A model generated the notes under the pieces. That model did not search any database, was not told where the DNA came from, and saw nothing but the letters and a program-made list of their open reading frames with translations. Positions 22,984 through 34,920 of a DNA stretch of 64,000 bases are shown here, one piece after another. How positions within the stretch are numbered: the stretch's first letter is position 1; each line of letters opens with the position of its first letter. Origin of the DNA: Candidatus Borrarchaeum weybense (GTDB taxonomy: Archaea > Asgardarchaeota > Sifarchaeia > Borrarchaeales > Borrarchaeaceae); NCBI GenBank assembly GCA_019057385.1, contig JAHQJS010000005.1, positions 1 through 64,000 on the forward strand, written 5' to 3'. Made by a program: the position numbers and the translations under genes.

Positions 22984-24282
22984 ATGCAACAATTGATTAC
23001 GGTATTGTCGATATCAACAACAAAAAACGAGACGATCAAAGCCACCTTGAAAGCTACTAAAGAAAGACGAAAACGTCAAACCTGTAGGGTGTTTGAGCTA
23101 AAAATCGACAGCTCCCATCTTAACCATCACACCAAAGAACATTTGAAACGCTTATTTCTGGAAGCCAAATGGTTGTATAACTATATTCTCTCGCAGCATA
23201 ACGTGTTTGATACGGATTATAAACTCTCTGAAGTGCCTGTCAAAGTCAAGGATAATTTTGAACTCCGCGAACTACGTCATCTCTCCTCACACATGAAACA
23301 GAGTCTCATTAAGCGAACTATGGACAATATCAAGGGATTGACACGCTTAAAAGCTAACGGACGCAAAATTGGCAGACTCACATTCAAGAGTTATGTTAAT
23401 TCAATCCCCTTGAAACAATCCGGAAATACCTACCGCATACTGAATGACAAATACATCAGGATACAAGGTATCTCACAACAACTACGTGTCAATGGCTTAA
23501 CTCAAATTCCTCGCGGCAGTGAACTGGCAAATGCGACCTTAATCCAGCGGCATGGCGACTACTTCGTAACAATCACCATCTACCAGACGCGGGAACACAC
23601 AACACCCCCTTCGAAAACGGTAGGCATAGATTTCGGAGTTAAAACACAGTTAACGCTTTCAGACGGCATTGCCATCCAGTATGTAATCCCCATTAGCAAC
23701 AAATTAAGAAAATTGCACCAGAAATTAAGTCGCTGTCAATTTCGCAGCAAGAATTGGTATAAAACCAAGTGTAAACTGGAAAAAGCCTATGCTAAGGTTA
23801 ACAATATCAAGAAAGACGTCAAGAACAAACTAGTCCATTATCTACACACTACTTATGGGATAGTGTGTTATCAGGATGAGAACATCAAGGCGTGGCAACG
23901 CTTATGGGGCAGAAAAATCGTATCCACCGCTATCGGAGGGATCATACGCACACTTGAAGTAAAGGTGCATACTCCGATCAAAGTCGATAGGTTTTTCCCC
24001 TCCACCAAAACCTGTTCGCGCTGTGGAAATATCCGTGACATCGGATTGGATGAACGAATCTATACCTGTCCAGTCTGTGGGTTAGTGATGGACAGAGATC
24101 ATAATGCAAGTGTTAACCTAGATAACGAAGGATTAAAACAACTTGTACCTACGGGACGTAGGGATGTTAAGCCTGTGGAGACTGAATCCTCTACTTTGGC
24201 ATCGCTGGAATACTTAAACGGTATTCCCTATGTGAAAGCAAGTTCGGTCTGCGAAGCAGGAAGCCTCATCGCTTCAGCGTGA
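22984..24282 (+). CDS. tnpB: RNA-guided endonuclease TnpB
   Basis: GIDFGVK (RuvC-I), FFPSTKTCSRCG..CPVCG Zn finger, DRDHNASVN (RuvC-III). Confidence 0.95.
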   Translation: MQQLITVLSISTTKNETIKATLKATKERRKRQTCRVFELKIDSSHLNHHTKEHLKRLFLEAKWLYNYILSQHNVFDTDYKLSEVPVKVKDNFELRELRHLSSHMKQSLIKRTMDNIKGLTRLKANGRKIGRLTFKSYVNSIPLKQSGNTYRILNDKYIRIQGISQQLRVNGLTQIPRGSELANATLIQRHGDYFVTITIYQTREHTTPPSKTVGIDFGVKTQLTLSDGIAIQYVIPISNKLRKLHQKLSRCQFRSKNWYKTKCKLEKAYAKVNNIKKDVKNKLVHYLHTTYGIVCYQDENIKAWQRLWGRKIVSTAIGGIIRTLEVKVHTPIKVDRFFPSTKTCSRCGNIRDIGLDERIYTCPVCGLVMDRDHNASVNLDNEGLKQLVPTGRRDVKPVETESSTLASLEYLNGIPYVKASSVCEAGSLIASA

Positions 24283-25184: not shown

Positions 25185-26585
25185 TTAAGAAGATATTTTT
25201 GCCTCTATTCCTTCCTTATTTAGTATTCCACGAGCTGCAATTATACCTGTAGCAGCAGCAGTGACAATACCTCCAGATAATCCAGCCCCATCACCTGCTA
25301 CAAAAAGATTTGAAACTGGTGTTTCAAGTTTTTGATCCACTTGAATCATGTTTGCATAAAATTTTATTTCAGGTGCATAAAGAAGGGTAGAACTGCTAGC
25401 AACTCCTGGTACAACATTATCTAGTTTGTCTAGGCCTTCTAAAATATCAGTTACTATTCGATGAGGAAAAGCCATAGCTATATCTCCTGGCGTAACATGC
25501 AATAAAGTTGGTTTTACATTACTACGTCTTATCCTCCCCCAGGTGCTTCTTCGCCATTGTTTTAAATCTCCTAGCCTTTGTAAAAGCGGTTTTCCTCCTC
25601 CTAATGTTGTTGTAATTGCCGCAAGACTCTGTCCGTATGCGGTGGTATCTTCTATAGGTTCGGTTAAGTTGACTCGAACCAAAAACGCAAAGTTTGTATT
25701 TTCACTTTTCTTAGAAAGCATTGCATGCCCATTGACACCTATTGTAGAATCATAAACTTCCTGAACGACAAATCCTCTAGCATTTGTACAAAACGTCCTT
25801 ACGAAATCATCATACGTTTTTGAATAAATATGAAACTTTGGATCATAGTTTACTTCAATCACCGGATCCATGACAATTGCAGGCACTTCGACACGGACAC
25901 CAATATCAATTGGTCCGTGTTTTATCGGGATGTTCAGTTTTCTGACCTGTTCTGCCAGCCAAGCGGCGCCGATTCTTCCTGGAGCAGCCAATATATAGTT
26001 GCATGAGATATCGGATCCGTCTTCTAACTTTAGTTTTCCCTGTTCAAGTTGAGTTACCTTTCTTTTAATCAGTAATTTGACTCCTTTCTTCATCAAATCC
26101 TCCTTAAAATTAGCAATAACACGTGGAGTATTATCGGTCCCCATATGTCTTTGAGGTATAGGAACAAAACGAATTCCTGACGCAGCTGCTTTTCGGGCAA
26201 GATCTCTTACTTGTTCATCATCTGCAGTATAAACATTTTGAGGAGCGCCATATCTAACAAATGCATCATCAACATGCCGTACCAAATCCCAACTCAATTC
26301 AGAACTATTAGTTAACTCCTCAAGGTTCCCACCAATATCTGGTCGCAGATTAAGAAGACCACTAGAAAGTGTACCTGCACCTCCTACACCACTCATTTGA
26401 GAACAAGGATTACATTTCTCACAAACGCCTGTTATAGTAGTAGCAGGACACCTTCTTTCATTAATGTCACGCCCCATATCTATTATGACTATTTTGAGAT
26501 TGCTTTTCTCTGCTAATTCCAATGCTGCAAACATTCCAGCAGGGCCAGCACCAATTATTACAACATCTGTCTGCAAAAACTTCAA
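25185..26585 (-). CDS. FAD-dependent oxidoreductase (COG2509-like)
   Basis: IIGAGPAG, GVGGAG..S.G, HMGTD, DIGVRVE, RTFC, APEIKFY, AGDGAG. Confidence 0.88.
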   Translation of the reverse strand: MKFLQTDVVIIGAGPAGMFAALELAEKSNLKIVIIDMGRDINERRCPATTITGVCEKCNPCSQMSGVGGAGTLSSGLLNLRPDIGGNLEELTNSSELSWDLVRHVDDAFVRYGAPQNVYTADDEQVRDLARKAAASGIRFVPIPQRHMGTDNTPRVIANFKEDLMKKGVKLLIKRKVTQLEQGKLKLEDGSDISCNYILAAPGRIGAAWLAEQVRKLNIPIKHGPIDIGVRVEVPAIVMDPVIEVNYDPKFHIYSKTYDDFVRTFCTNARGFVVQEVYDSTIGVNGHAMLSKKSENTNFAFLVRVNLTEPIEDTTAYGQSLAAITTTLGGGKPLLQRLGDLKQWRRSTWGRIRRSNVKPTLLHVTPGDIAMAFPHRIVTDILEGLDKLDNVVPGVASSSTLLYAPEIKFYANMIQVDQKLETPVSNLFVAGDGAGLSGGIVTAAATGIIAARGILNKEGIEAKISS

Positions 26586-26750
26586 CCCAAAATATCTTTA
26601 TTGAATTTTCAAATTTAATTCAAGAAGTCTAAAGTAAACCAGCGTATAAACAAGCTAACTAGATTTAAAGATTACGTTTTTGCAATATCTTTCTCGAAAA
26701 GTATCTCAATGTGCCAAAAATATCTATTCACGTTTGTTTGGAACGTACAA

Positions 26751-26918
26751 TGGCAGGGCGGTCGGGATTTTCCCTTTCTTAGTAGTCCTAAGCAAGATTT
26801 GAACCCGAGAGTCGACTGAGAACCAATTTAGAGGTTCTCTTTTCCGCTTATAATCACCTTATAGGCTATAACTTCGGTTCCGGAGACCGACGTCTTATCC
26901 TGGCTTGACCACCGCCCT
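26751..26918 (-). tRNA. tRNA-Arg(CCG) with non-canonical introns (~60 nt in variable region, 30 nt in T-loop); encoded CCA
   Basis: AGGGCGG/CCGCCCT acceptor stem, TCGGT-CTCCGGA-ACCGA anticodon arm, TCGGG-TTC[30 nt]AAAT-CCCGA T-arm, G-CCA end. Confidence 0.9.
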
Positions 26919-26973
26919 ATTTAATAACCTAAAGAGTTCTTTTTAACTCTTTAAAAAAATAGGTGTAGTGAAG

Positions 26974-27588
26974 TTATTGACTCAATACTTGACTCATGTC
27001 TTTAGCGGATACTAGTGATTTAATATGAGTTACTACTCCGATATCAGTATCCCATATACCATCTATCTCTCTTAATTCCATTATGAAGTCCCATGCACTT
27101 TGTACACCCATAGCAAAGAAATAAAATCCAATATCAAAGTCTGCTTGTTGAAAAGTGTAACCTAGGAATGCAGGTAAGACCGTGTCGCTCATTGTAATTT
27201 TAGACAGTTCTTGATAGACATCAATATCTTTTGTGGGTTCGATATCAAGTTTGACCGTGAAAAGGGGGAATTCAACAGTTGTATCTTGTCCCGAATATGA
27301 GCTTTGGAAGTCTGCAAGACTGAATTGAGCTAACCCTTTAAAAGAAGTAATTGGATAGACCATAATCTCGCGTATCTCTTTAATACTACGTATTCTCTTT
27401 AAAATGAAGTCATTTAGAGATTCTACATCTTTTGCCTGAATCATTATTTCAAGATCCGCTGTTTCAAAAATTTGTCCGATAAATAGTGGCATTACAGATT
27501 CCGTTCTATCTAAGTTTTCTAATAAACGTTCATAAGCCAGCTTATCAGAACCAGCTTCAATATCACACACTGCCATAAACAAGGTCAT
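26974..27588 (-). CDS. Tandem Lrp/AsnC ligand-binding (RAM)-like domain protein
   Basis: Two internal repeats of 'DIE...D...Y..L', 'Dh.h.h.A..V.S..DFI...hR.I..I'. Confidence 0.6.
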   Translation of the reverse strand: MTLFMAVCDIEAGSDKLAYERLLENLDRTESVMPLFIGQIFETADLEIMIQAKDVESLNDFILKRIRSIKEIREIMVYPITSFKGLAQFSLADFQSSYSGQDTTVEFPLFTVKLDIEPTKDIDVYQELSKITMSDTVLPAFLGYTFQQADFDIGFYFFAMGVQSAWDFIMELREIDGIWDTDIGVVTHIKSLVSAKDMSQVLSQ

Positions 27589-27922
27589 AGTTATCACCTT
27601 AAATCATCAATATTTCTTGTATCCTCCTAAAAATCATTCTACTTTTTCTCTGATAATGTTTAGTTATATAACCATATTCCACAAAGAATTGTTAGGTAGT
27701 AGTTCACTAAGGAAAACATCATTTAAAGGGAGAAAAGTGAAGCATATATATATTTTCTGCTAGTTTTTTGGTGATTTATCATCTATAGGTCTGAATAACG
27801 AGTATATCAAAAACACAAGTATAATAACCTAGAAAAACTAATATAGATAGATCACGTAAGAGAATAGTAAGGGAGCATTTCTTTTCTAAATTTTAAATGA
27901 TGCATTTGACGGAGTAAGATAA

Positions 27923-28510
27923 TTGATGCACTTGCCATCACCAAAAGACATTCGCCGAATGCGTAAGCGACTCAATCTTACACAAACAGATCTTGCTCAA
28001 CGTGCAAATGTATCTCAATCACTAATTGCGCGGATAGAATCCGGATCTGTTGATCCGAGGCTTTCAACCTTAAAAAGGATCTTAGAGGCATTAGAAGCAA
28101 CTACAAAGGAACAACGATACACAACTGCTGAGGATGTCATGTGTCAAACAATTGTTTCAATTGGACCAGAAGATCTCCTTGCACATGCAGCTGATCTTAT
28201 GAGGGAAAATGGAGTATCTCAACTCCCGGTAATTGAAAAAGGCAATCAAATTGGAGCGATTCTGGAGACAGAAATTGTAAGTGCAATAATAGAATCCCCA
28301 AAGGCTCTTAATAAAAAAGTAAAAGAAGTGATGTTGGATAAATTACCTTCAGTTGATCCAAAGGCGAACGTGGAAGAAGTCTACGAATTGATTAAAGAAG
28401 GAAAACCTGCAGTAGTAGTTGAACAGGAAGGAAATATTATAGGAATTATTACTAAGATTGATTTGATTAGTTATTATTTTAAATGGCCACCAGTCGGACC
28501 TACACAATGA
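27923..28510 (+). CDS. XRE-HTH + CBS-pair transcriptional regulator (COG3620-like)
   Basis: LTQTDLA.RANVSQSLIARIESG.VDPRLST plus CBS domains. Confidence 0.93.
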   Translation: MMHLPSPKDIRRMRKRLNLTQTDLAQRANVSQSLIARIESGSVDPRLSTLKRILEALEATTKEQRYTTAEDVMCQTIVSIGPEDLLAHAADLMRENGVSQLPVIEKGNQIGAILETEIVSAIIESPKALNKKVKEVMLDKLPSVDPKANVEEVYELIKEGKPAVVVEQEGNIIGIITKIDLISYYFKWPPVGPTQ

Positions 28511-28771
28511 TTGATGGTGCTAGCAAAAAATATGATTTAAAGCGCATGACTTTTTTGAAATCTTCTCTTTAACTCAAAATGAATACAAGTTAAGATTTTT
28601 CTTCACAATATTATGTCCATAAGAAATTAACCTCATTCATTATGTTAGTGCGAGCGCGTATGAATAGTGAAATATTGGAGTGAAATAGACGTTTTCTCCA
28701 TTGATGAAGAGGAATGCGCGCCAACCTAGAAAATTCACAAGTTAACAAGATGCGAAAAAAACTTCATTCAT

Positions 28772-28795
28772 TTCCATCGGAAAAGCTGCAGGGGG
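28772..28795 (+). promoter_or_regulatory. ORB-like Orc1/Cdc6 binding site
   Basis: TTCCATCGGAAAAGCTGCAGGGGG resembles TTCCA-N3-GAAA...G-string. Confidence 0.5.
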
Positions 28796-29057
28796 AGAGA
28801 TTACCAGGAAATTATATAAAACAATCAATTTAACATAATGAGTTCTATATTATAGGTTAAGTAATAGTACAAATAATCAGTTTAAAAGAACTTAATATCA
28901 GTTATCTTAACATGTTAAGTTGGTGAAAACAGCAACTGTGTGAAACATCCTAAAAAACAAAGGAGATACGTCAAAAGTACGAAATCAAGACTCTTAACCC
29001 ATTATGGTATTACCCACATAATAAACTAACTTTTATTGACGATGTTTACATATTCAC

Positions 29058-29537
29058 ATGTTAGTATCAAGAGGTATCAAATTGCCTAAAGTCACTTTCA
29101 ATGATCCAGTAACTGGAAAGCCTTTGATGACACTTGAAGACAAAACCGCAAATGGAATAAAAAAATTAATTGAGCAAATCGAAAACTCTAGTTTTAAAGA
29201 AATTTTAGATAAATATCGAGATAGCTCTAAAGTGGCAAAATCGAAGACTCAAGAAAATGTTACGCAGTTTTCTAATCTTACAGTAGTCGATAAAATTAAA
29301 ATGATTTTAAATGAATTAGTGATTGGCTGGCATACATCCACTGAGATTAAAGAAGAATATGAGCGGGTATTTAAAGAAGAAATTAAACAGCAAACTATTT
29401 CAACAAATCTTTTAAGACTTTCAAAACATGAAATCCTTGAAAGAAGACGTATTGGAAAAATGTACGAATATAGAGTTAATAAGGAGAGATTAAGAGAGTC
29501 TTTCTCCGACGAAATCCTACTTTTATCTGAACCTTGA
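29058..29537 (+). CDS. Winged-helix DNA-binding protein
   Basis: 'WHTSTEI...YE....E.IK..TIST.L.RL....ILERRR.GK.YEYRV'; probable TTG start at 29082 after GAGGT. Confidence 0.75.
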   Translation: MLVSRGIKLPKVTFNDPVTGKPLMTLEDKTANGIKKLIEQIENSSFKEILDKYRDSSKVAKSKTQENVTQFSNLTVVDKIKMILNELVIGWHTSTEIKEEYERVFKEEIKQQTISTNLLRLSKHEILERRRIGKMYEYRVNKERLRESFSDEILLLSEP

Positions 29538-29654
29538 ACCTCTAATTTTTGTCGTTTAGTTTTCCGATGAAATTCTAGATTTTCTGACAAAATAATTTAA
29601 TATTTTTTGTCGTTTTATTAGCATCTCCGTTAATTATATCGGATACGATGAAAT
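29505..29654. repeat. Cluster of six CGAYRAAAW-like repeats, direct and inverted
   Basis: tccgacgaaat 29505; atttttgtcg 29545 (inv); ccgatgaaat 29564; ctgacaaaat 29584; ttttgtcg 29605 (inv); acgatgaaat 29645. Confidence 0.6.
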
Positions 29655-29889
29655 CTTAAACTAACGAACCCCTTTAGTTCTTATCGAATTCCTAAAGGAA
29701 TATAAAACAGATTTTATTGGAGTTATAAGCACAATTCATTTTGCTTGAGGGGTGTGTCCGATTATATTTTGTTATGTTGAAAGTTATTTTGAATCGGGAT
29801 ATCGCTTTGGAACTATTGAAGACTTCATGATTTCCTAAGAAATCATTACTTCCTTAAATATATCCTGTTCATAGAAATAAGATTTTAGT

Positions 29890-30408
29890 GTGAAAATGAT
29901 GAAGATGATGATATCAAATGACTGGATAGCTGGCTTTGTTGATGGGGAAGGGTGTTTCTCTATATGTATTCAAAAAAGACGAAATTATCATACATATACC
30001 CCTAAAGATTTCATTCTATATCTCTGTTTTAAGATTAGGTTGCATAGTGATGACGTCCATGCATTAGAGGAAATTAATAGAGTGTTAGGTGTTGGTAATG
30101 TGAGTATTTCTTCAAAGGTTGCACAATACGCCGTTTACAATTTAGAGGATTGTATTTTTATCTCTGATTTCTTCAAGGATAAACTATTTACAAAAAAAAG
30201 AAAGGATTTCGAATTATGGTGTGAAGCACTTGAGATATTCAATACCAGGAAACATAGAACAAAGAATGGCTTTTTAGAGATCACTAAAATAAGGGATCTG
30301 ATGAATGTTGATTCAAGTAAGAAACATAAAAACTATCGATCTAGTGAATGGTTTATTAGTTATTTCAGAGCAAATCCTCAAATGCAAGTACATCGATTAA
30401 AAACATGA
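29890..30408 (+). CDS. Single-motif LAGLIDADG homing endonuclease, free-standing
   Basis: WIAGFVDGEGCF, 'L..I...LGVG.V', 'L.TKK..DF.LW', 'H.T..G...I..IR..MN'. Confidence 0.9.
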   Translation: MKMMKMMISNDWIAGFVDGEGCFSICIQKRRNYHTYTPKDFILYLCFKIRLHSDDVHALEEINRVLGVGNVSISSKVAQYAVYNLEDCIFISDFFKDKLFTKKRKDFELWCEALEIFNTRKHRTKNGFLEITKIRDLMNVDSSKKHKNYRSSEWFISYFRANPQMQVHRLKT

Positions 30409-30510
30409 AGCAATAGTATTATGGTTTTGATTAATGGTTTTATTCTTATAGATTTACTATTTTCTTTTTGCTTTTAATTTAAACTATGTACTCCAGTATG
30501 GTATATATTT

Positions 30511-30778
30511 GAACATATGTTCTAAATAATCTATAATCTAATCTAATCATGCTTCGACGAGAAAAAATGGGGTCTGAGGGGAAAACTAAGTGGAAATTTT
30601 GTCTTTCTCCTTTCCGACAAAATTTATTAAATCATTTCAGTCGGCAAACAAGCTAAAAAATTGATTTAAGGGAAACAACTAAATATTTACTCATAAATTA
30701 CTTGAACTATTTGCGATGTTGCAGAATAGAGTTGCGCCATAATTTTTTAGCAAAGTTCAAATATTAGAACATGTGTTC
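30511..30778. promoter_or_regulatory. Inverted pair of GAAC-N4-GTTC palindromes enclosing a 10-bp inverted repeat and ORB-like motifs (candidate origin core)
   Basis: GAACATATGTTC 30511-30522; GAACATGTGTTC 30767-30778; aaattttgtc/gacaaaattt 30594-30625; TTCGACGAGAAAAAATGGGGT 30553-30573. Confidence 0.5.
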
Positions 30779-30788
30779 CAATAGATAA

Positions 30789-30809
30789 GTCGACTCGAAA
30801 TCAAAGGGT
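30789..30809 (+). promoter_or_regulatory. ORB-like site
   Basis: GTCGACTCGAAATCAAAGGGT. Confidence 0.45.
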
Positions 30810-31071
30810 CACTGGTTTATAAATAACAAAAAAACTGACTCTTTCTTCTTTCTTATCTCCTTAGTGTTCTGTCTAAAATAGATATTTTAATGTAATTAAT
30901 TTCTATTAGAACATTCCATAATCCTTTTTTTACAAAACTGAGCTTTACTTTTCTCAAAAACCACAGTGCGCGCATTATTCAGTAGAAATCTATCCAAATG
31001 CTTATATCTCTGAATCAGATAATTCAAATTAACAATTAAAAACAGATACAGTTTAACTTAGGAGGTTGCTA

Positions 31072-31371
31072 ATGTTGACACAAGTTCCACTAAACAAAAA
31101 ACGTGGTTTGAGTCAAGAAACAGAAGGTGATTTCGAATATTTGGGTGGAGGAATAGTTAGTCCATCAATTTCTCTTGAAGAATATCTATTGAAAATATTA
31201 CAAGATGGGCCGATGACTCGGGGTGAACTTTCAGTTGCTACAGGTATACCAAGAACCACTCTCTATGATACTTTAGTAAAACTAATCATGCAAGACAGAG
31301 TGGAAAAGTTTTCGTCGAGTAAACGTAAACGAGGTCGTCCAAACGTCTATTATCGTTTAGTGTCTTACTGA
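31072..31371 (+). CDS. Small HTH (TrmB/ArsR-like) DNA-binding protein
   Basis: GGAGG SD; 'GPMTRGELS.ATGIPRTTLYDTL.KL', 'RGRP.VYY'. Confidence 0.85.
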   Translation: MLTQVPLNKKRGLSQETEGDFEYLGGGIVSPSISLEEYLLKILQDGPMTRGELSVATGIPRTTLYDTLVKLIMQDRVEKFSSSKRKRGRPNVYYRLVSY

Positions 31372-31385
31372 AATATTACCATTTG

Positions 31386-31718
31386 TCATAGGTCGACTTT
31401 GGTATCATAAAGGGGCACTTCTTGAGCGATTTTAAACGCTCTTGCATAAATAACATCTGAATAACTCTGGAAATATGCCATTAACTTTTCAAAATCTTTC
31501 TCTTGTATATTTTCTAGAAGAATTGTACTTTCTCCCACTTTGTCATACCATTTTAGGGAATCTAAGATCCCTGTTTTTCGTTTACGCATTCTCCCACTTT
31601 TGGTCTCCCATTCATAAAAATACCCATATAACCCCTTAGTAAATTGGATTCTCCGTGGATTCTGCTTCATTCCTTTTCTCATATCATAACTTATTAAAAT
31701 CGATTTCATTTGTAGCAA
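31386..31718 (-). CDS. Stand-alone Cas2/VapD-like ferredoxin-fold protein
   Basis: N-terminal 'ILISYD', 'F.K.LYGY', 'GIL', 'KVGESTILL'; no CRISPR array or other cas genes nearby. Confidence 0.5.
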   Translation of the reverse strand: MLQMKSILISYDMRKGMKQNPRRIQFTKGLYGYFYEWETKSGRMRKRKTGILDSLKWYDKVGESTILLENIQEKDFEKLMAYFQSYSDVIYARAFKIAQEVPLYDTKVDL

Positions 31719-32046
31719 CTCATTTAGAAGATAATTGACATATTTTTCATAGCATAAATACTAGATTATTAGGGAAACATTTAAACCATTTTCGAGCAAA
31801 CTTCATTCGTTCAAAAAATATACGAAACTACCGTTTGATAATTTTGTTTTCCAGCCATTTAAAATCCCATAATGATTCTTCAGTTTTTTTATCGGCTTTA
31901 AAATTTTACCTCAGTAACTTTTAAATAACCTAAAAAACAAAACCTGACACTACGCACTCATATTGCACCATCAGATACTTCTTGTGTCTTTTTAAATGGT
32001 AATACCATGATGACAGCTATCGCTTTTAAAATGGAAATGCCATAAT

Positions 32047-32066
32047 TTCCACAAGAAATAAAGGTT
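32047..32066 (+). promoter_or_regulatory. ORB-like site immediately upstream of cdc6
   Basis: TTCCACAAGAAATAAAGGTT, ending 18 nt before the cdc6 ATG. Confidence 0.6.
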
Positions 32067-32084
32067 CAGTCAGCCCATTAAAAT

Positions 32085-33344
32085 ATGGAGGCTAAAACAT
32101 TGGATACACCGTCCCCGAAAGTTGATGCGATGATTGACAAATATTTAGAAGCTCCACAGATATTTAAAAACAGAGAAGCGCTAAACCATTCTTTTGTGCC
32201 CGATGAACTCCCACATAGGGATAAACATCTTGATAGAATGGTTTCTATTCTTATATCAGCATTAAGAGGTGGTACACCCTCTAACATCTTCCTCTATGGC
32301 AAAACGGGAGCAGGAAAAACAGCAGTAGCTCGGTTGGTGTTAAGGGCAATAGCATCCAAGGGAAGAGGAACAAATATGCCCCTTATTCCTTCCTATATTA
32401 ATTGTAATCAGTTCAGCACAAACTATAGTATACTAAGAAAATTATGCAAGAAAATTGACATTGAAGTCCCCTTTACAGGATTGCCGACCGATGAAGTTTA
32501 TTCTAGATTTAGAGACGGTTTGGATTCAGCTGAGCAATTAATGATTATCATTCTTGATGAAGTAGACAAACTTGTCAATAAAAGCGGGAATGATGTCCTA
32601 TATGACCTTACTCGCATGAAGGTAGATTTGGAACGGGCACGGGTTAGTTTAATTGGTATTACTAATGATCTTAGATTTAAGAGCCAAATTGATCCTAGAG
32701 TTTTAAGCAGTTTAAGTGAAGAAGAATTATTTTTTGCACCATATAAAGCTACGGAACTACAAACTATTCTAGAACAGCGAGCTAAAATGGCATTTCATCC
32801 CGGAGTCTATGATTACGGTGTTATCACACTCTGCGCTGCAATTGGGGCTAGGGAACATGGTGATGCAAGAAGAGCATTACATTTGTTGAAGGTTAGTGGA
32901 GAGCTTGCCGAAACACAAAAACTCAACAAGGTTACAGAGGATCATGTGAAGCAGGCACGAAACCATATTGAACAAAAGACTATTAACACTTTCTTAGAGA
33001 CGCTTCCAATCCAATCGAAAACCGTTCTGCATAGTATTTATTTGTTAGAAGTCAACGGTAAAAAGGAAATCTTTAGTGGAGACGTTTATGATGTATATTC
33101 CGAAATTTGTGGGATTGTAGGTTTGGATAGATTAACCCTACGTCGAATCAGTGATTTTGTTAATGAACTTATTATGCATGGAATTATTTCCGCACAGGAG
33201 ATAAGCCGTGGAAGGTATGGGCGCACCAGACGAATGCAATTAAGCATCCCTCAAGAACAGGTGAAAAAAGTACTAGTCGAAGAAGATAAAACTGGCAGAT
33301 TAAAACAAGTAATTGACTTCGTACCTACTTTACTTCGCCCATAG
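32085..33344 (+). CDS. cdc6: Orc1/Cdc6 replication initiator
   Basis: LPHRD, YGKTGAGKT Walker A, ILDEVD Walker B, HGDARRA, wHTH 'SRGRYGRTR'. Confidence 0.97.
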   Translation: MEAKTLDTPSPKVDAMIDKYLEAPQIFKNREALNHSFVPDELPHRDKHLDRMVSILISALRGGTPSNIFLYGKTGAGKTAVARLVLRAIASKGRGTNMPLIPSYINCNQFSTNYSILRKLCKKIDIEVPFTGLPTDEVYSRFRDGLDSAEQLMIIILDEVDKLVNKSGNDVLYDLTRMKVDLERARVSLIGITNDLRFKSQIDPRVLSSLSEEELFFAPYKATELQTILEQRAKMAFHPGVYDYGVITLCAAIGAREHGDARRALHLLKVSGELAETQKLNKVTEDHVKQARNHIEQKTINTFLETLPIQSKTVLHSIYLLEVNGKKEIFSGDVYDVYSEICGIVGLDRLTLRRISDFVNELIMHGIISAQEISRGRYGRTRRMQLSIPQEQVKKVLVEEDKTGRLKQVIDFVPTLLRP

Positions 33345-33345
33345 T

Positions 33346-34920
33346 TTAGTTAAAATTTATTTCTGTTACCTTTTTTGTGTGTAAATTTATTATAGGGACT
33401 ATGCCTGGAGTTGGATTGATATTTAATTTCTTTTGATAATTCGTTTGTGCTTGGAAAGCCCCTGAATTAACGACTGTTACACCTCGATACATAGTGACTC
33501 CGTTCGTATGTGTATGTCCTGCATGAAATATGTCTGGTACATCTTCGATGACTAAGAAGTCATTAGATTCGTGTGCTAGTGTAGTTTTTCCACCCCAGCG
33601 CGGAGCTAAATGTCGTGCTTTCAATAATTCTACCATTGCTTTATCAGGAGATTCAGTGGCAACGGTTGGAATGCTTTCAACTACATCATCAAGAGATCTG
33701 CCATGATCAAGTAGGACTTTTACATTATGAATAGAAACGTATGTAGGACTTCCAAGAACTTGTACATTTGGCATTTCGTATAATTCCTCTGCAAATTCTT
33801 TAGGAATTGGTGGTTGAGGTAATGCTTGACGGGTTGCATCGTGGTTTCCAGGTATTATGATGATTTCGATATGTTGTGGTATTTGTTCAAGGAATTTACT
33901 AACCTCTTTATATTGCTGGTAGATATCTTTGATTAATAGTTCTTTTTCTTGGTTTGGAAAGATCCCTATCCCTTCAACAAGATCACCAGCAATGAGTAGA
34001 TACTTGACGCTTCGACCAAGCGTTTTCTCCTTTCTACCACCCACTTCCCCCTTTAACCATGAAATGAATTGCTCAAAAGCCCTATCTAAAAATTTCATAG
34101 ACCCTATATGTAAATCAGAAATCAGCGCAGCGCATATAGGAATCGGTGCACCCTTCCATGAATGTGTTGTTGGGATCTCAGGAAGCAGTATATCCTTTAC
34201 TAGAAACATTTTGTTACGCGTTGTGCCATGAATGCAAATAACTTGATCATCTAATAATCGTTCAGTTTTGTGTACTAAGTTTTCCTCATTTCTAGGAACA
34301 ATCACTTGGAGTGTCCCAGTAGGATCATCAATTTCTAAGGAGTATCCGCCTTTTTTAGTCTCGCGTCTTGAAACTAACATGCCTATAATATGGAAATCTT
34401 CCCATTCGTCAGAACTATGTAATTCAGCTATTGGAACATAATTTTGTGTATCACTTCGTTTAAGAAGGAGTTTTTTAAGTTTAACATATCTTGAATGAAA
34501 AAGGTTAGCTAAATGTTCAATTGGGTTTTTTACAGCAGTTTTTATTATGTTTGGTGTTTTTATTATCACGATTTCTGCTTCAACTTCCTTAGCATCTATT
34601 AAAGTTATTTCTTGGTCATTTGCGAGTATTGTATCCCTTTTAATTACAGGTGCCGCGATTTCGAAATCTTTCTTGAACATTTCTGTTCCTATCGAACGCA
34701 TCTTCCCTTTAGTCGATGGCTCTATGGAGGTTAAGAACTCTTTTGTGATTACTAAAGGACTCTTAGGTAATTCATTAGCTTTTTCAATGATTGTTTTAAT
34801 TAGATTTTCTGGATTCTCTTTTGACATTAGAAGTTCAAGAACATCCGAACCAATTTGATATCCCGAAAGAACAAACTCTTTCAAAAATTCCGTAGCTTTC
34901 GATTTAATATGATTAGTCAT
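33346..34920 (-). CDS. polB: DNA polymerase D small (proofreading exonuclease) subunit DP1
   Basis: OB fold; ISDLHIGS, AGDLVEG, PGNHD, HGRSLDD, RHLAP, HAGHTH. Confidence 0.96.
   Translation of the reverse strand: MTNHIKSKATEFLKEFVLSGYQIGSDVLELLMSKENPENLIKTIIEKANELPKSPLVITKEFLTSIEPSTKGKMRSIGTEMFKKDFEIAAPVIKRDTILANDQEITLIDAKEVEAEIVIIKTPNIIKTAVKNPIEHLANLFHSRYVKLKKLLLKRSDTQNYVPIAELHSSDEWEDFHIIGMLVSRRETKKGGYSLEIDDPTGTLQVIVPRNEENLVHKTERLLDDQVICIHGTTRNKMFLVKDILLPEIPTTHSWKGAPIPICAALISDLHIGSMKFLDRAFEQFISWLKGEVGGRKEKTLGRSVKYLLIAGDLVEGIGIFPNQEKELLIKDIYQQYKEVSKFLEQIPQHIEIIIIPGNHDATRQALPQPPIPKEFAEELYEMPNVQVLGSPTYVSIHNVKVLLDHGRSLDDVVESIPTVATESPDKAMVELLKARHLAPRWGGKTTLAHESNDFLVIEDVPDIFHAGHTHTNGVTMYRGVTVVNSGAFQAQTNYQKKLNINPTPGIVPIINLHTKKVTEINFN

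Follow-up and report, generated by a model that had tools for sequence, protein, structure and literature searches.

A probable chromosomal replication origin locus in the Asgard archaeon Candidatus Borrarchaeum weybense, with resident companion genes and a homing-endonuclease gene in its core

A 3.5-kb stretch of the chromosome of Candidatus Borrarchaeum weybense, a Sif/Borrarchaeum-type archaeon, is probably a conserved Asgard chromosomal origin locus of the oriC1 or Orc1/Cdc6 type. The genome analysed comprises 4.18 Mb in 8 contigs with a GC content of 37%, and the window, the 64,000 nucleotides studied here, is the first 64 kb of contig C5 (JAHQJS010000005.1). Between a gene for a helix-turn-helix (HTH) protein with CBS domains and orc1/cdc6, the stretch contains about 2 kb of non-coding DNA and four small open reading frames (ORFs), three of which are here called A1, A3 and A2; the other encodes a LAGLIDADG homing endonuclease (Table 1). 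An origin that combines Cdc6 with origin recognition boxes (ORBs) is of a known kind. What is unusual is that Asgard-specific genes reside at the origin, that the ORBs track those genes and not cdc6, and that a homing-endonuclease gene lies in the core. New on this DNA are the cassette in the core, the degenerate ORBs of the genus and the palindromes. An earlier note, made from the letters of this DNA, had proposed either an oriC with accessory regulators or a mobile origin cassette spread by the homing endonuclease. The former reading is supported by boxes that are recognisable, if degenerate, versions of the ORB shared across the phylum, by an inverted core collinear with those of relatives and by the synteny of three of the four genes.

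The initiator gene at the right border of the stretch stands tail to tail with the gene for DP1, as the earlier note had said on the basis of ORFs and as Pfam searches now bear out. Its product is an intact Cdc6 orthologue, 78-79% identical to the Cdc6 of congeners, and the orthologous gene is present as a single copy in 182 of 201 Asgard genomes (E<=1e-85). Three distant Orc1/Cdc6 paralogues are encoded elsewhere in the genome, and no ORB-like repeats were found within 1.5 kb of any of them. The long AT-rich intergenic tracts were likewise borne out, with a GC content of 0.30 at 29-31 kb compared with 0.37 genome-wide. The order HTH-CBS, A1, A3, A2, cdc6, DP1, PhoU was kept in all four congeners examined (loci L034 to L037). 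Of the features that define an Orc1/Cdc6-dependent oriC, both an adjacent initiator gene and ORBs (TTCCAnnGGAAA dyad plus G-string) in excess of chance were found.

ORBs were scored with a 30-nt position weight matrix (PWM) derived from 104 ORBs of non-congeneric Asgard loci, and the whole 4.18-Mb genome was scanned. A simple regular expression, TT[CG]CA-N3-GAAA, matched twice in the region and showed no genome-wide enrichment; the independent matrix was therefore built from other lineages. A strict expression, TCCA-N2-4-GGAAA-N4-12-GGGG, had two matches in the genome, one of them at 28773. The matrix yielded 10 sites above 12 bits and 47 above 7.5 bits. Five of these 47 sites fell within 28769-32073 (3.3 kb), which makes the 3.5 kb starting at 28769 the densest ORB stretch of the genome, the runner-up having two. 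Four of the five are the ORB-like boxes that the earlier note had placed at 28772, 30553, 30789 and 32047. These boxes are real, with matrix starts at 28769, 30550, 30786 and 32044 on the plus strand. They are not all co-oriented, as had been thought, for the fifth box (ORB-L), which the note had missed, lies on the minus strand and is inverted relative to ORB2.

The low score of ORB1 is due to a longer spacer between its dyad and its G-string; this box was kept at the same place in L034 and L035. Boxes proximal to cdc6, comparable to ORB4, occur 20-140 nt upstream of the gene in several other families, and the congeners carry a related GAAAT...ATTTC...AGAAAT arrangement there. Canonical ORBs (TTCCAGTGGAAATAAAGGGGTGGG) are found 0.02-2.3 kb upstream of the orthologous cdc6 in many Asgard families. 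The ORB-like boxes of the locus are degenerate copies of the canonical ORB of the phylum. The 547-bp spacer upstream of A1, in which ORB1 lies, is also rich in two other motifs: TGTGAA occurs four times, compared with 0.34 expected from its genome rate, and GTGAAA four times, compared with 0.46 expected. These boxes are partly conserved in L034 and L035.

ORB-L and ORB2 constitute the core, an inverted pair whose dyads face an AT-rich spacer containing a lineage-specific palindrome. The orthologous boxes of the congeners are also inverted with their dyads inward and lie 73-100 bp apart. ORB2 orthologues in L034-L037 scored 11.9-16.8 bits, and those of ORB-L scored 8.1 bits in L034 (81 bp from ORB2) and 14.1 bits in L036 (73 bp from ORB2). 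Odin-, Hod- and Frey-type cores consist of a G-string and dyad, an AT-rich spacer of 150-190 bp, and a dyad and G-string. Across the four congeners and these three relatives the spacers measure 73-190 bp and are roughly 64-72% AT. In the window the inverted pair is present and is split by a 780-bp cassette, leaving the two boxes about 860 bp apart as against 73-100 bp in the congeners; minus the cassette, the window is collinear with the congener, Odin, Hod and Frey cores. The non-coding block that ends in ORB-L could be aligned across all five congeneric sequences.

The spacer palindrome of the congeners reads TAGAACATATGTTCTAA and lies in AT-rich DNA between the inverted ORBs. Only about eight sites of the core palindrome exist in our genome, two of them at this locus. 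The congeners have the counterpart of palindrome 2 directly after ORB2, and no ORB3 was seen in them. About 180 bp between ORB2 and palindrome 2 (30586-30763) has no counterpart in the congeners; this segment holds CGACAAAAT, which repeats in inverted orientation the TTTTGTCG sequence found at 29547 and 29605. Elsewhere in the genome the TWGAACATRTGTTCWA palindrome was present only at C7:346720, C7:367610, C7:646026, C7:650971, C8:71947 and C4:1071904, some of these copies being intergenic and one being inside a gene of 1007 codons. The GAACATRTGTTC palindrome was also considered as the marker of a regulon. This idea was dropped, as the neighbours of the other sites share no replication or cell-cycle theme from which a regulon could be proposed.

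Alignment with L034 and L035 showed homology running from 28451 to 29717, breaking off, and resuming at 30498, with boundaries accurate to a few bp. As homology breaks and resumes in this manner and the cores of relatives are collinear, we conclude that the endonuclease gene landed inside the core spacer. The 780-bp insertion carries the LAGLIDADG gene and nothing else, has the GC content of its flanks, and holds the only copy of this gene in the genome. The product matched Pfam LAGLIDADG_1 (PF00961) at 4e-20 over profile positions 1-101 of 102, and its IAGFVDGEGCF motif is intact and invariant in an alignment with four relatives. No LAGLIDADG match was found in the four congeners. The nearest relatives of the protein are encoded on two short metagenome contigs (P0122 and P0123; 82-83% identity), followed by Micrarchaeota at 40%, and a metagenome scan with the protein gave no matches. 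Contigs from two independent sediment studies (runs X5 and X7) cover both flanks at 95-99% identity and have zero depth over 29711-30514; this hints at cassette-free alleles in nature, with no contig bridging the gap. A 6-bp inverted repeat, TGGAGT ... ACTCCA, is present at the cassette ends (29713-29718 and 30489-30494) and may be due to chance. Taken together, the alignments indicate a clean presence/absence insertion relative to the congeners, which is the mark of a mobile homing endonuclease.

The endonuclease resembles single-motif, homodimeric enzymes of the I-CreI type in having one LAGLIDADG_1 domain in about 170 residues and an intact acidic motif (GFVDGEG). It also resembles free-standing and intron- or intein-borne LAGLIDADG endonucleases in its sporadic distribution and presence/absence polymorphism. 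It differs from known members in that it is located in non-coding origin DNA; it occupies neither an intron in an rRNA gene nor an intein nor a conserved target within a coding sequence. Our literature search yielded no report of an origin core that contains a homing-endonuclease gene. The existence of one core both uninterrupted and with 780 bp of foreign DNA between its ORBs amounts to a natural experiment on spacing tolerance.

The products of the three companion genes are small and were characterised by profile and structure searches. In the AlphaFold model of A1 the C-terminal winged helix had a predicted local distance difference test (pLDDT) score >90, and the N-terminal half was of low confidence. 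The best fold matches to this model were winged helices of the PadR/ArsR/RosR type (also MarR), ORC/Cdc6 chains appearing only far down the list. Pfam and NCBIfam returned only weak, generic repressor-type winged-helix matches. Homology to Cdt1 or WhiP was also considered; A1 has one confident winged helix, and no Cdt1/WhiP-type match was present in Pfam or among the fold matches listed. The earlier note had taken all four small genes of the stretch to encode nucleic-acid-binding proteins or nucleases. Pfam agrees for the two winged-helix proteins A1 and A3 and for the LAGLIDADG_1 protein; the ORF at 31386-31718 (A2) has no Pfam match.

This last gene had been called Cas2-like. The model of A2 (pLDDT 92) predicts a ferredoxin-like beta-alpha-beta-beta-alpha-beta fold with two hairpins, and the median isoelectric point (pI) of the family is 9.1. 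In Foldseek searches the only good superpositions among the matches listed were with Cas2 proteins (probability ~1, E ~0.02). However, the structural match lists show that this resemblance is one of fold only, that the fold is generic, and that Cas2 is tied with ribosomal protein S6. None of 62 members of the A2 family matched the Cas2 Pfam models at E<=1, and a profile search of PDB sequences reached Cas2 only as chain 7cr6_E at E=0.95. No cas genes turned up among the conserved neighbours of A2 (A3, ORBs, cdc6 and A1), although no search was aimed at CRISPR arrays. Thus, the name describes a fold resemblance and not family membership. A Thor homologue of A2 matched only unnamed archaeal protein clusters. 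Among 5.8 billion proteins, the A1 family (441 relatives) and the A2 family (240 relatives) consist entirely of proteins annotated as hypothetical and lacking Pfam domains. A toxin-antitoxin pair made up of a winged helix and a Cas2-like protein was considered and set aside, because the genes occur once per genome, are found in nearly all of the phylum and do not form an operon: they are convergent here and elsewhere are separated by ORBs or other genes.

Homologues of the companion genes are located beside cdc6 in distant Asgard families as well. Of the 201 Asgard genomes sampled, 157 had a member of the A1 family in a profile search, in almost every case only one. By hand tally, some 60 of the 201 genomes, from about 14 families, have A1 no more than 6.2 kb from cdc6, mostly at a distance of 0.14-0.6 kb. 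In one large family (f7), A1 and cdc6 share a contig in 14 genomes, at a near-constant distance of 54-66 kb; its A1 frame, at about 210 amino acids, matches that of Thorarchaeota in length, which suggests that f7 is this group. A3 likewise has homologues next to the origin, both within the genus and at Hod-, Odin- and further Asgard loci. A homologue of the HTH-CBS gene lies about 2-9 kb from cdc6 in most relatives examined (tblastn of L034-L044; 10 of 15 cdc6-linked loci).

A pattern scan for A2, limited to one genome per species, gave 73 loci, all of them Asgard (Thor, Odin, Hod, Hermod, Frey, Jord and Sif/Borr) except for two oddly labelled contigs. A1 was within about 3 kb of A2 in 61 of the 73 loci, and some 45 of these, mostly named Thorarchaeota, had no cdc6 within 6 kb. 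The 38 full-length A1-A2 loci without cdc6 within 6 kb contained 122 ORBs above 14 bits, 38 of them just upstream of A1, 81 no more than 1 kb downstream of A2, and three elsewhere. No full ORB was found in the cdc6 loci of Thor type. As ORBs are present at the A1/A2 loci and absent from the Thor-type cdc6 loci, we conclude that they follow the A1/A2 pair and not cdc6. The earlier note had suggested that linkage of its four genes to cdc6 be examined in Asgard relatives: A1, A3 and A2 are linked to cdc6 or ORBs there, and the LAGLIDADG gene is found in this genome only. On gene order and distribution, A1, A3 and A2 are ancient resident companions of the origin across the phylum, inherited vertically with it.

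Two rearrangements were seen at these loci. In about 45 loci, mostly of Thorarchaeota, two large convergent ORFs (440 and 443 amino acids; L069:3232-5888 and equivalents) lie between A1 and A2, with the ORBs left at the outer flank on either side; this has the appearance of another, more ancient instance of gene insertion at an Asgard origin. In two congeners (L036:7575-8033 and L037:4650-5111) A1 is divergent (46-50% identical), inverted, and beside a canonical ORB (35.6 and 23.6 bits, respectively). A 43-codon remnant of the 3' end of a window-type A1 persists beside the divergent copy at L037:5761-5889. The divergent inverted copies and the remnant indicate that a module of ORB1 plus A1 was replaced or inverted within the genus.

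Compositional evidence was sought in closed relatives. G006 is a closed Odin-type chromosome of 1,418,269 bp that we reassembled from 71 pieces. Its only two ORBs above 14 bits form an inverted pair at 622,675 and 622,861, beside A2-A3-A1-cdc6. Along this chromosome, cumulative GC skew reaches its global maximum at 620 kb; cumulative gene-strand bias is lowest globally at 580-620 kb and highest at 1300 kb, the point opposite the locus being at 1331 kb. The strand-bias minimum at the locus means that genes diverge from it, as expected at an origin. Two more Orc1/Cdc6 paralogues are encoded at 605.6 kb and 502.5 kb of this chromosome. For a closed Odinarchaeum genome the authors placed the putative origin at the skew minimum (PMC9246712); if G006 is that assembly, our results suggest that the origin is at the ORB pair near 622 kb rather than at the published skew minimum. 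G026, another closed relative, was sampled at 43%; its gene-strand bias and its AT skew both turn at the locus. The compositional evidence from the closed relatives is suggestive of an origin at this locus and is not decisive.

Several observations weigh against an active origin in the window. The replication-related signal was absent from this genome: the cumulative GC-skew minimum of C5 is at 200 kb, not 30 kb, and the genes on its right-hand side (30-70 kb) are oriented towards the locus instead of diverging from it. The skew analysis proposed in the earlier note thus gave no turning point at about 30 kb, and both tests are weak because the window lies at the end of a contig and the genome is split into 8 contigs. 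At the G006 locus GC skew has a maximum, opposite to the bacterial origin rule, and in G026 its extremes lie away from the locus, at 0 and 1206 kb. With a best score of 17.7 bits here, compared with 35-40 for the canonical boxes of relatives, the ORBs are degenerate. The core is interrupted by the cassette, and a study of Sulfolobus oriC1 reports that disruption of ORB3-DUE-ORB2 (DUE, DNA unwinding element) abolishes its activity (PMC12141716). Moreover, the haloarchaeal oapABC genes show that origin-linked genes need not act in replication (PMC7002104, PMC10927574). The earlier note had named a missing skew signal and a lack of linkage of the genes to cdc6 as results that would speak against its reading; the skew signal was indeed missing, while the genes are clearly linked to cdc6 or ORBs in relatives. 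The core may have been put out of action by the cassette, or the origin may work in spite of it; ORB3 and the second palindrome, which are unique to this genome, might represent a repair of the core.

These points are best accommodated, short of an active origin, by an ancestral Asgard oriC that is now disabled by the LAGLIDADG insertion and by ORB decay, with replication starting elsewhere or by recombination and with the boxes surviving only as Cdc6 operators for A1, A3 and cdc6. The wide separation of the inverted ORBs, the modest score of the best ORB, the lack of a skew or gene-orientation turning point at 30 kb and the three other Orc1/Cdc6 paralogues would all fit, as would the origin-less growth of some archaea (Hawkins et al. 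2013, as cited in PMC12993045). We nevertheless consider a disabled origin unlikely: ORB-L, ORB2 and the palindrome are intact and are still the genome's best ORB matches, the orthologous Cdc6 is intact and as similar to its congeners' as noted above, the other paralogues have no ORB-like repeats beside them, and ORB3 with the second palindrome could be a rebuilt core. It is less likely still that the locus was never an initiation site and that its boxes are only Cdc6-responsive operators for cell-cycle control of the small genes and cdc6. ORB1 does precede A1 by about 285 bp, and the offset is comparable in Thor loci (~280-350 bp) and in L036; ORB4 is in the cdc6 promoter, and an Orc1-type protein, Orc1-2 of Saccharolobus, acts as a transcription regulator (PMC12490963). 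However, two inverted ORBs that flank an AT-rich spacer form the classical origin core, an arrangement shared by different classes, and the sole ORB pair of G006 coincides with genome-wide turning points of skew and gene orientation.

The other proposal of the earlier note, that the whole 3.5 kb is a mobile origin cassette spread by the homing endonuclease, or else the origin of an integrated plasmid or virus, is highly improbable and was rejected. The presence of the endonuclease gene speaks for it, as does the exchange of part of the locus in L036 and L037, where the divergent, inverted A1 stands beside the old 3'-end remnant; WhiP and oriC3 of Sulfolobus offer a precedent for a captured origin. 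Yet the endonuclease gene is confined to the 780-bp insertion in one genome, and the origin with A1-A3 is single copy, nearly universal and syntenic across Asgard classes, consistent with vertical inheritance. The flanking genes for NMNAT, a flavin adenine dinucleotide (FAD) enzyme, HTH-CBS, DP1 and PhoU are collinear in the congeners, the GC content of the LAGLIDADG cassette equals that of its flanks, and no integrase or viral genes are present.

Given a chromosomal origin at this locus, Cdc6 would bind the ORBs and, at the core, load MCM onto the spacer as at Sulfolobus oriC1. Cdc6 bound at ORB1 and ORB4 would probably also tune transcription of A1 and cdc6 in the manner of an operator-bound regulator. 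A1 and A3 may be sequence-specific binders of the non-ORB motifs, i.e. the TGTGAA boxes and the palindrome, and A2 may be a further small basic DNA-binding protein. The three proteins might modulate origin use as accessory factors or might themselves be under origin or cell-cycle control. We tentatively put forward a stronger version, which may well prove wrong: that A1-A3 are Asgard-specific origin factors encoded at their own origin, A1 and A3 acting on the TGTGAA boxes and palindrome and A2 acting with Cdc6 and MCM, and that the window holds the first case of a homing-endonuclease gene in the unwinding region of a cellular origin that still fires.

The earlier note had drawn an analogy to WhiP, the winged-helix initiator and Cdt1 relative of Sulfolobus oriC3. 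The likeness is that of a winged-helix gene beside an origin; A1 differs in having one PadR/ArsR-type winged helix and a poorly modelled N-terminal part. Parallels also exist to oriC1 of Sulfolobus/Saccharolobus (ORB3-DUE-ORB2, Orc1-1; PMC12141716), which shares the inverted ORBs of dyad plus G-string, the short AT-rich spacer and the adjacent orc1/cdc6. That origin also contains a non-ORB motif in mid-spacer, ucm, which is bound by UBP, just as the GAACATATGTTC palindrome occupies the spacer here, and small basic DNA-binding proteins are candidate accessory factors in both. Among accessory factors that act at a spacer motif, UBP at ucm comes nearest to what is proposed here (PMC12141716). In contrast to oriC1, the present locus has degenerate ORBs and a spacer into which a gene cassette of 780 bp has been inserted. 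The genome-wide nucleoid protein UBP is encoded away from the origin, whereas the genes for the candidates A1, A2 and A3 lie at the origin and stay with it across genomes; UBP was not among the structural matches listed for A2 (best 50 per search).

The Pyrococcus/Thermococcales oriC (PMC1904270, PMC4640148) likewise lies upstream of a cdc6 that is next to DP1 and has ORB/mini-ORB repeats built on the TTCCAGTGGAAA...GGGG consensus. It differs in that cdc6 and DP1 are tail to tail here, not co-oriented, and in the Asgard-specific A1-A3 among the boxes. The haloarchaeal oapABC/ArvABC genes (PMC7002104, PMC10927574) are comparable as a conserved three-gene cluster, initially of unknown function, beside the main origin and opposite the Orc gene specific to it. 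The two sets of proteins are not related, the haloarchaeal one consisting of a small GTPase (OapA/ArvA), a DUF2073 protein (OapB) and a DUF2072 zinc ribbon (OapC; PMC10927574), and the one here of two winged helices and a ferredoxin fold. In Pfam, A1-A3 matched winged-helix families or nothing. The Oap proteins act in vesicle formation (PMC7002104, PMC10927574); therefore, position alone does not give function.

Asgard archaea are the closest known relatives of eukaryotes, and we know of no experimental information on where their replication starts. Our literature search found no description of Asgard origins or of the A1-A3 genes. A 2026 review of Asgard archaea treats origins only through Sulfolobus and haloarchaea (PMC12993045). 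The locus and its relatives offer a sequence-defined candidate Asgard origin with an inverted ORB pair, a lineage-specific palindrome and TGTGAA boxes, together with three uncharacterised proteins that follow the ORBs even where cdc6 is situated about 60 kb away. The question of Asgard origins can therefore be addressed directly with recombinant proteins, or by chromatin immunoprecipitation in the few Asgard cultures.

Table 1. Features of the predicted origin locus and its borders (window positions)
Feature	Position	Strand	Description
HTH_3 + tandem CBS gene	27923-28510	+	Left border; Pfam CBS 2.2e-22, HTH_3 2.1e-14
(T)GTGAA(A) array	28600-29063		TGTGAA at 28607(-), 28739(-), 28939(+) and 29058(-); GTGAAA at 28667, 28680, 28923 and 28940 (+); flanks ORB1, upstream of A1
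ORB1	28769-28798	+	TTCCATCGGAAA dyad and GGGGG string; ~285 bp upstream of A1 start; PWM 8.5 bits
A1	29082-29537	+	151 amino acids from a TTG aligned with the congeners' start; ORF opens at 29058; Pfam Penicillinase_R 9.4e-6
Conserved non-coding block	29538-29717		After A1; TTTTGTCG and CGATGAAAT (mini-ORB-like) repeats (D18, I2, I4); ends in ORB-L
ORB-L	29662-29691	-	Left inverted ORB of core; PWM 13.2 bits, among the genome's 10 best
LAGLIDADG cassette	29718-30497	+	780-bp insertion; gene 29890-30408 (172 amino acids), free-standing, single-motif
Palindrome 1	30502-30525		TTTGAACATATGTTCTAA; inside inter-ORB spacer; kept in 4/4 congeners between inverted ORBs
ORB2	30550-30579	+	Right inverted ORB of core; PWM 17.7 bits, best site in genome
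Palindrome 2 + ORB3	30764-30815	+	GAACATGTGTTC at 30767-30778, ORB3 at 30786-30815; inverted repeat I3; PWM 10.3 bits
A3	31066-31371	+	Small basic TrmB/Lrs14-like winged helix, 101 amino acids; Pfam TrmB 1.7e-6; NCBIfam Lrs14 3e-5 (below cut-off)
A2	31386-31718	-	110 amino acids, basic (pI 9.5), predicted ferredoxin fold; no Pfam match; the 'Cas2-like' gene of the earlier note
ORB4	32044-32073	+	cdc6 promoter-proximal; ends 12 nt before cdc6 ATG; PWM 7.7 bits
Orc1/Cdc6	32085-33344	+	Pfam Cdc6_lid 3.9e-27, Cdc6_C 1.2e-26, AAA domain
DNA polymerase D (PolD) small subunit DP1	33346-34920	-	Pfam DNA_pol_E_B 3.4e-18; tail to tail with cdc6

A few further observations concern the surroundings of the locus. 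An Rfam search of 26500-33000 gave no RNA family at E<=0.1. A 168-nt multi-intron tRNA-Arg had earlier been read at 26751-26918, and Rfam gave no tRNA match on 26500-27000 at E<=0.1. A TnpB-like ORF of 432 amino acids is located at 22984-24282, 4 kb to the left of the origin locus; it had no match in L034 or L035, the congener loci that reach the NMNAT gene and end just past it. Finally, three of the ten best matrix sites in the genome lie within 26 kb of one another (C7:297472, 317416 and 322957), about 75-100 kb from the Orc1/Cdc6 paralogue at C7:222251.

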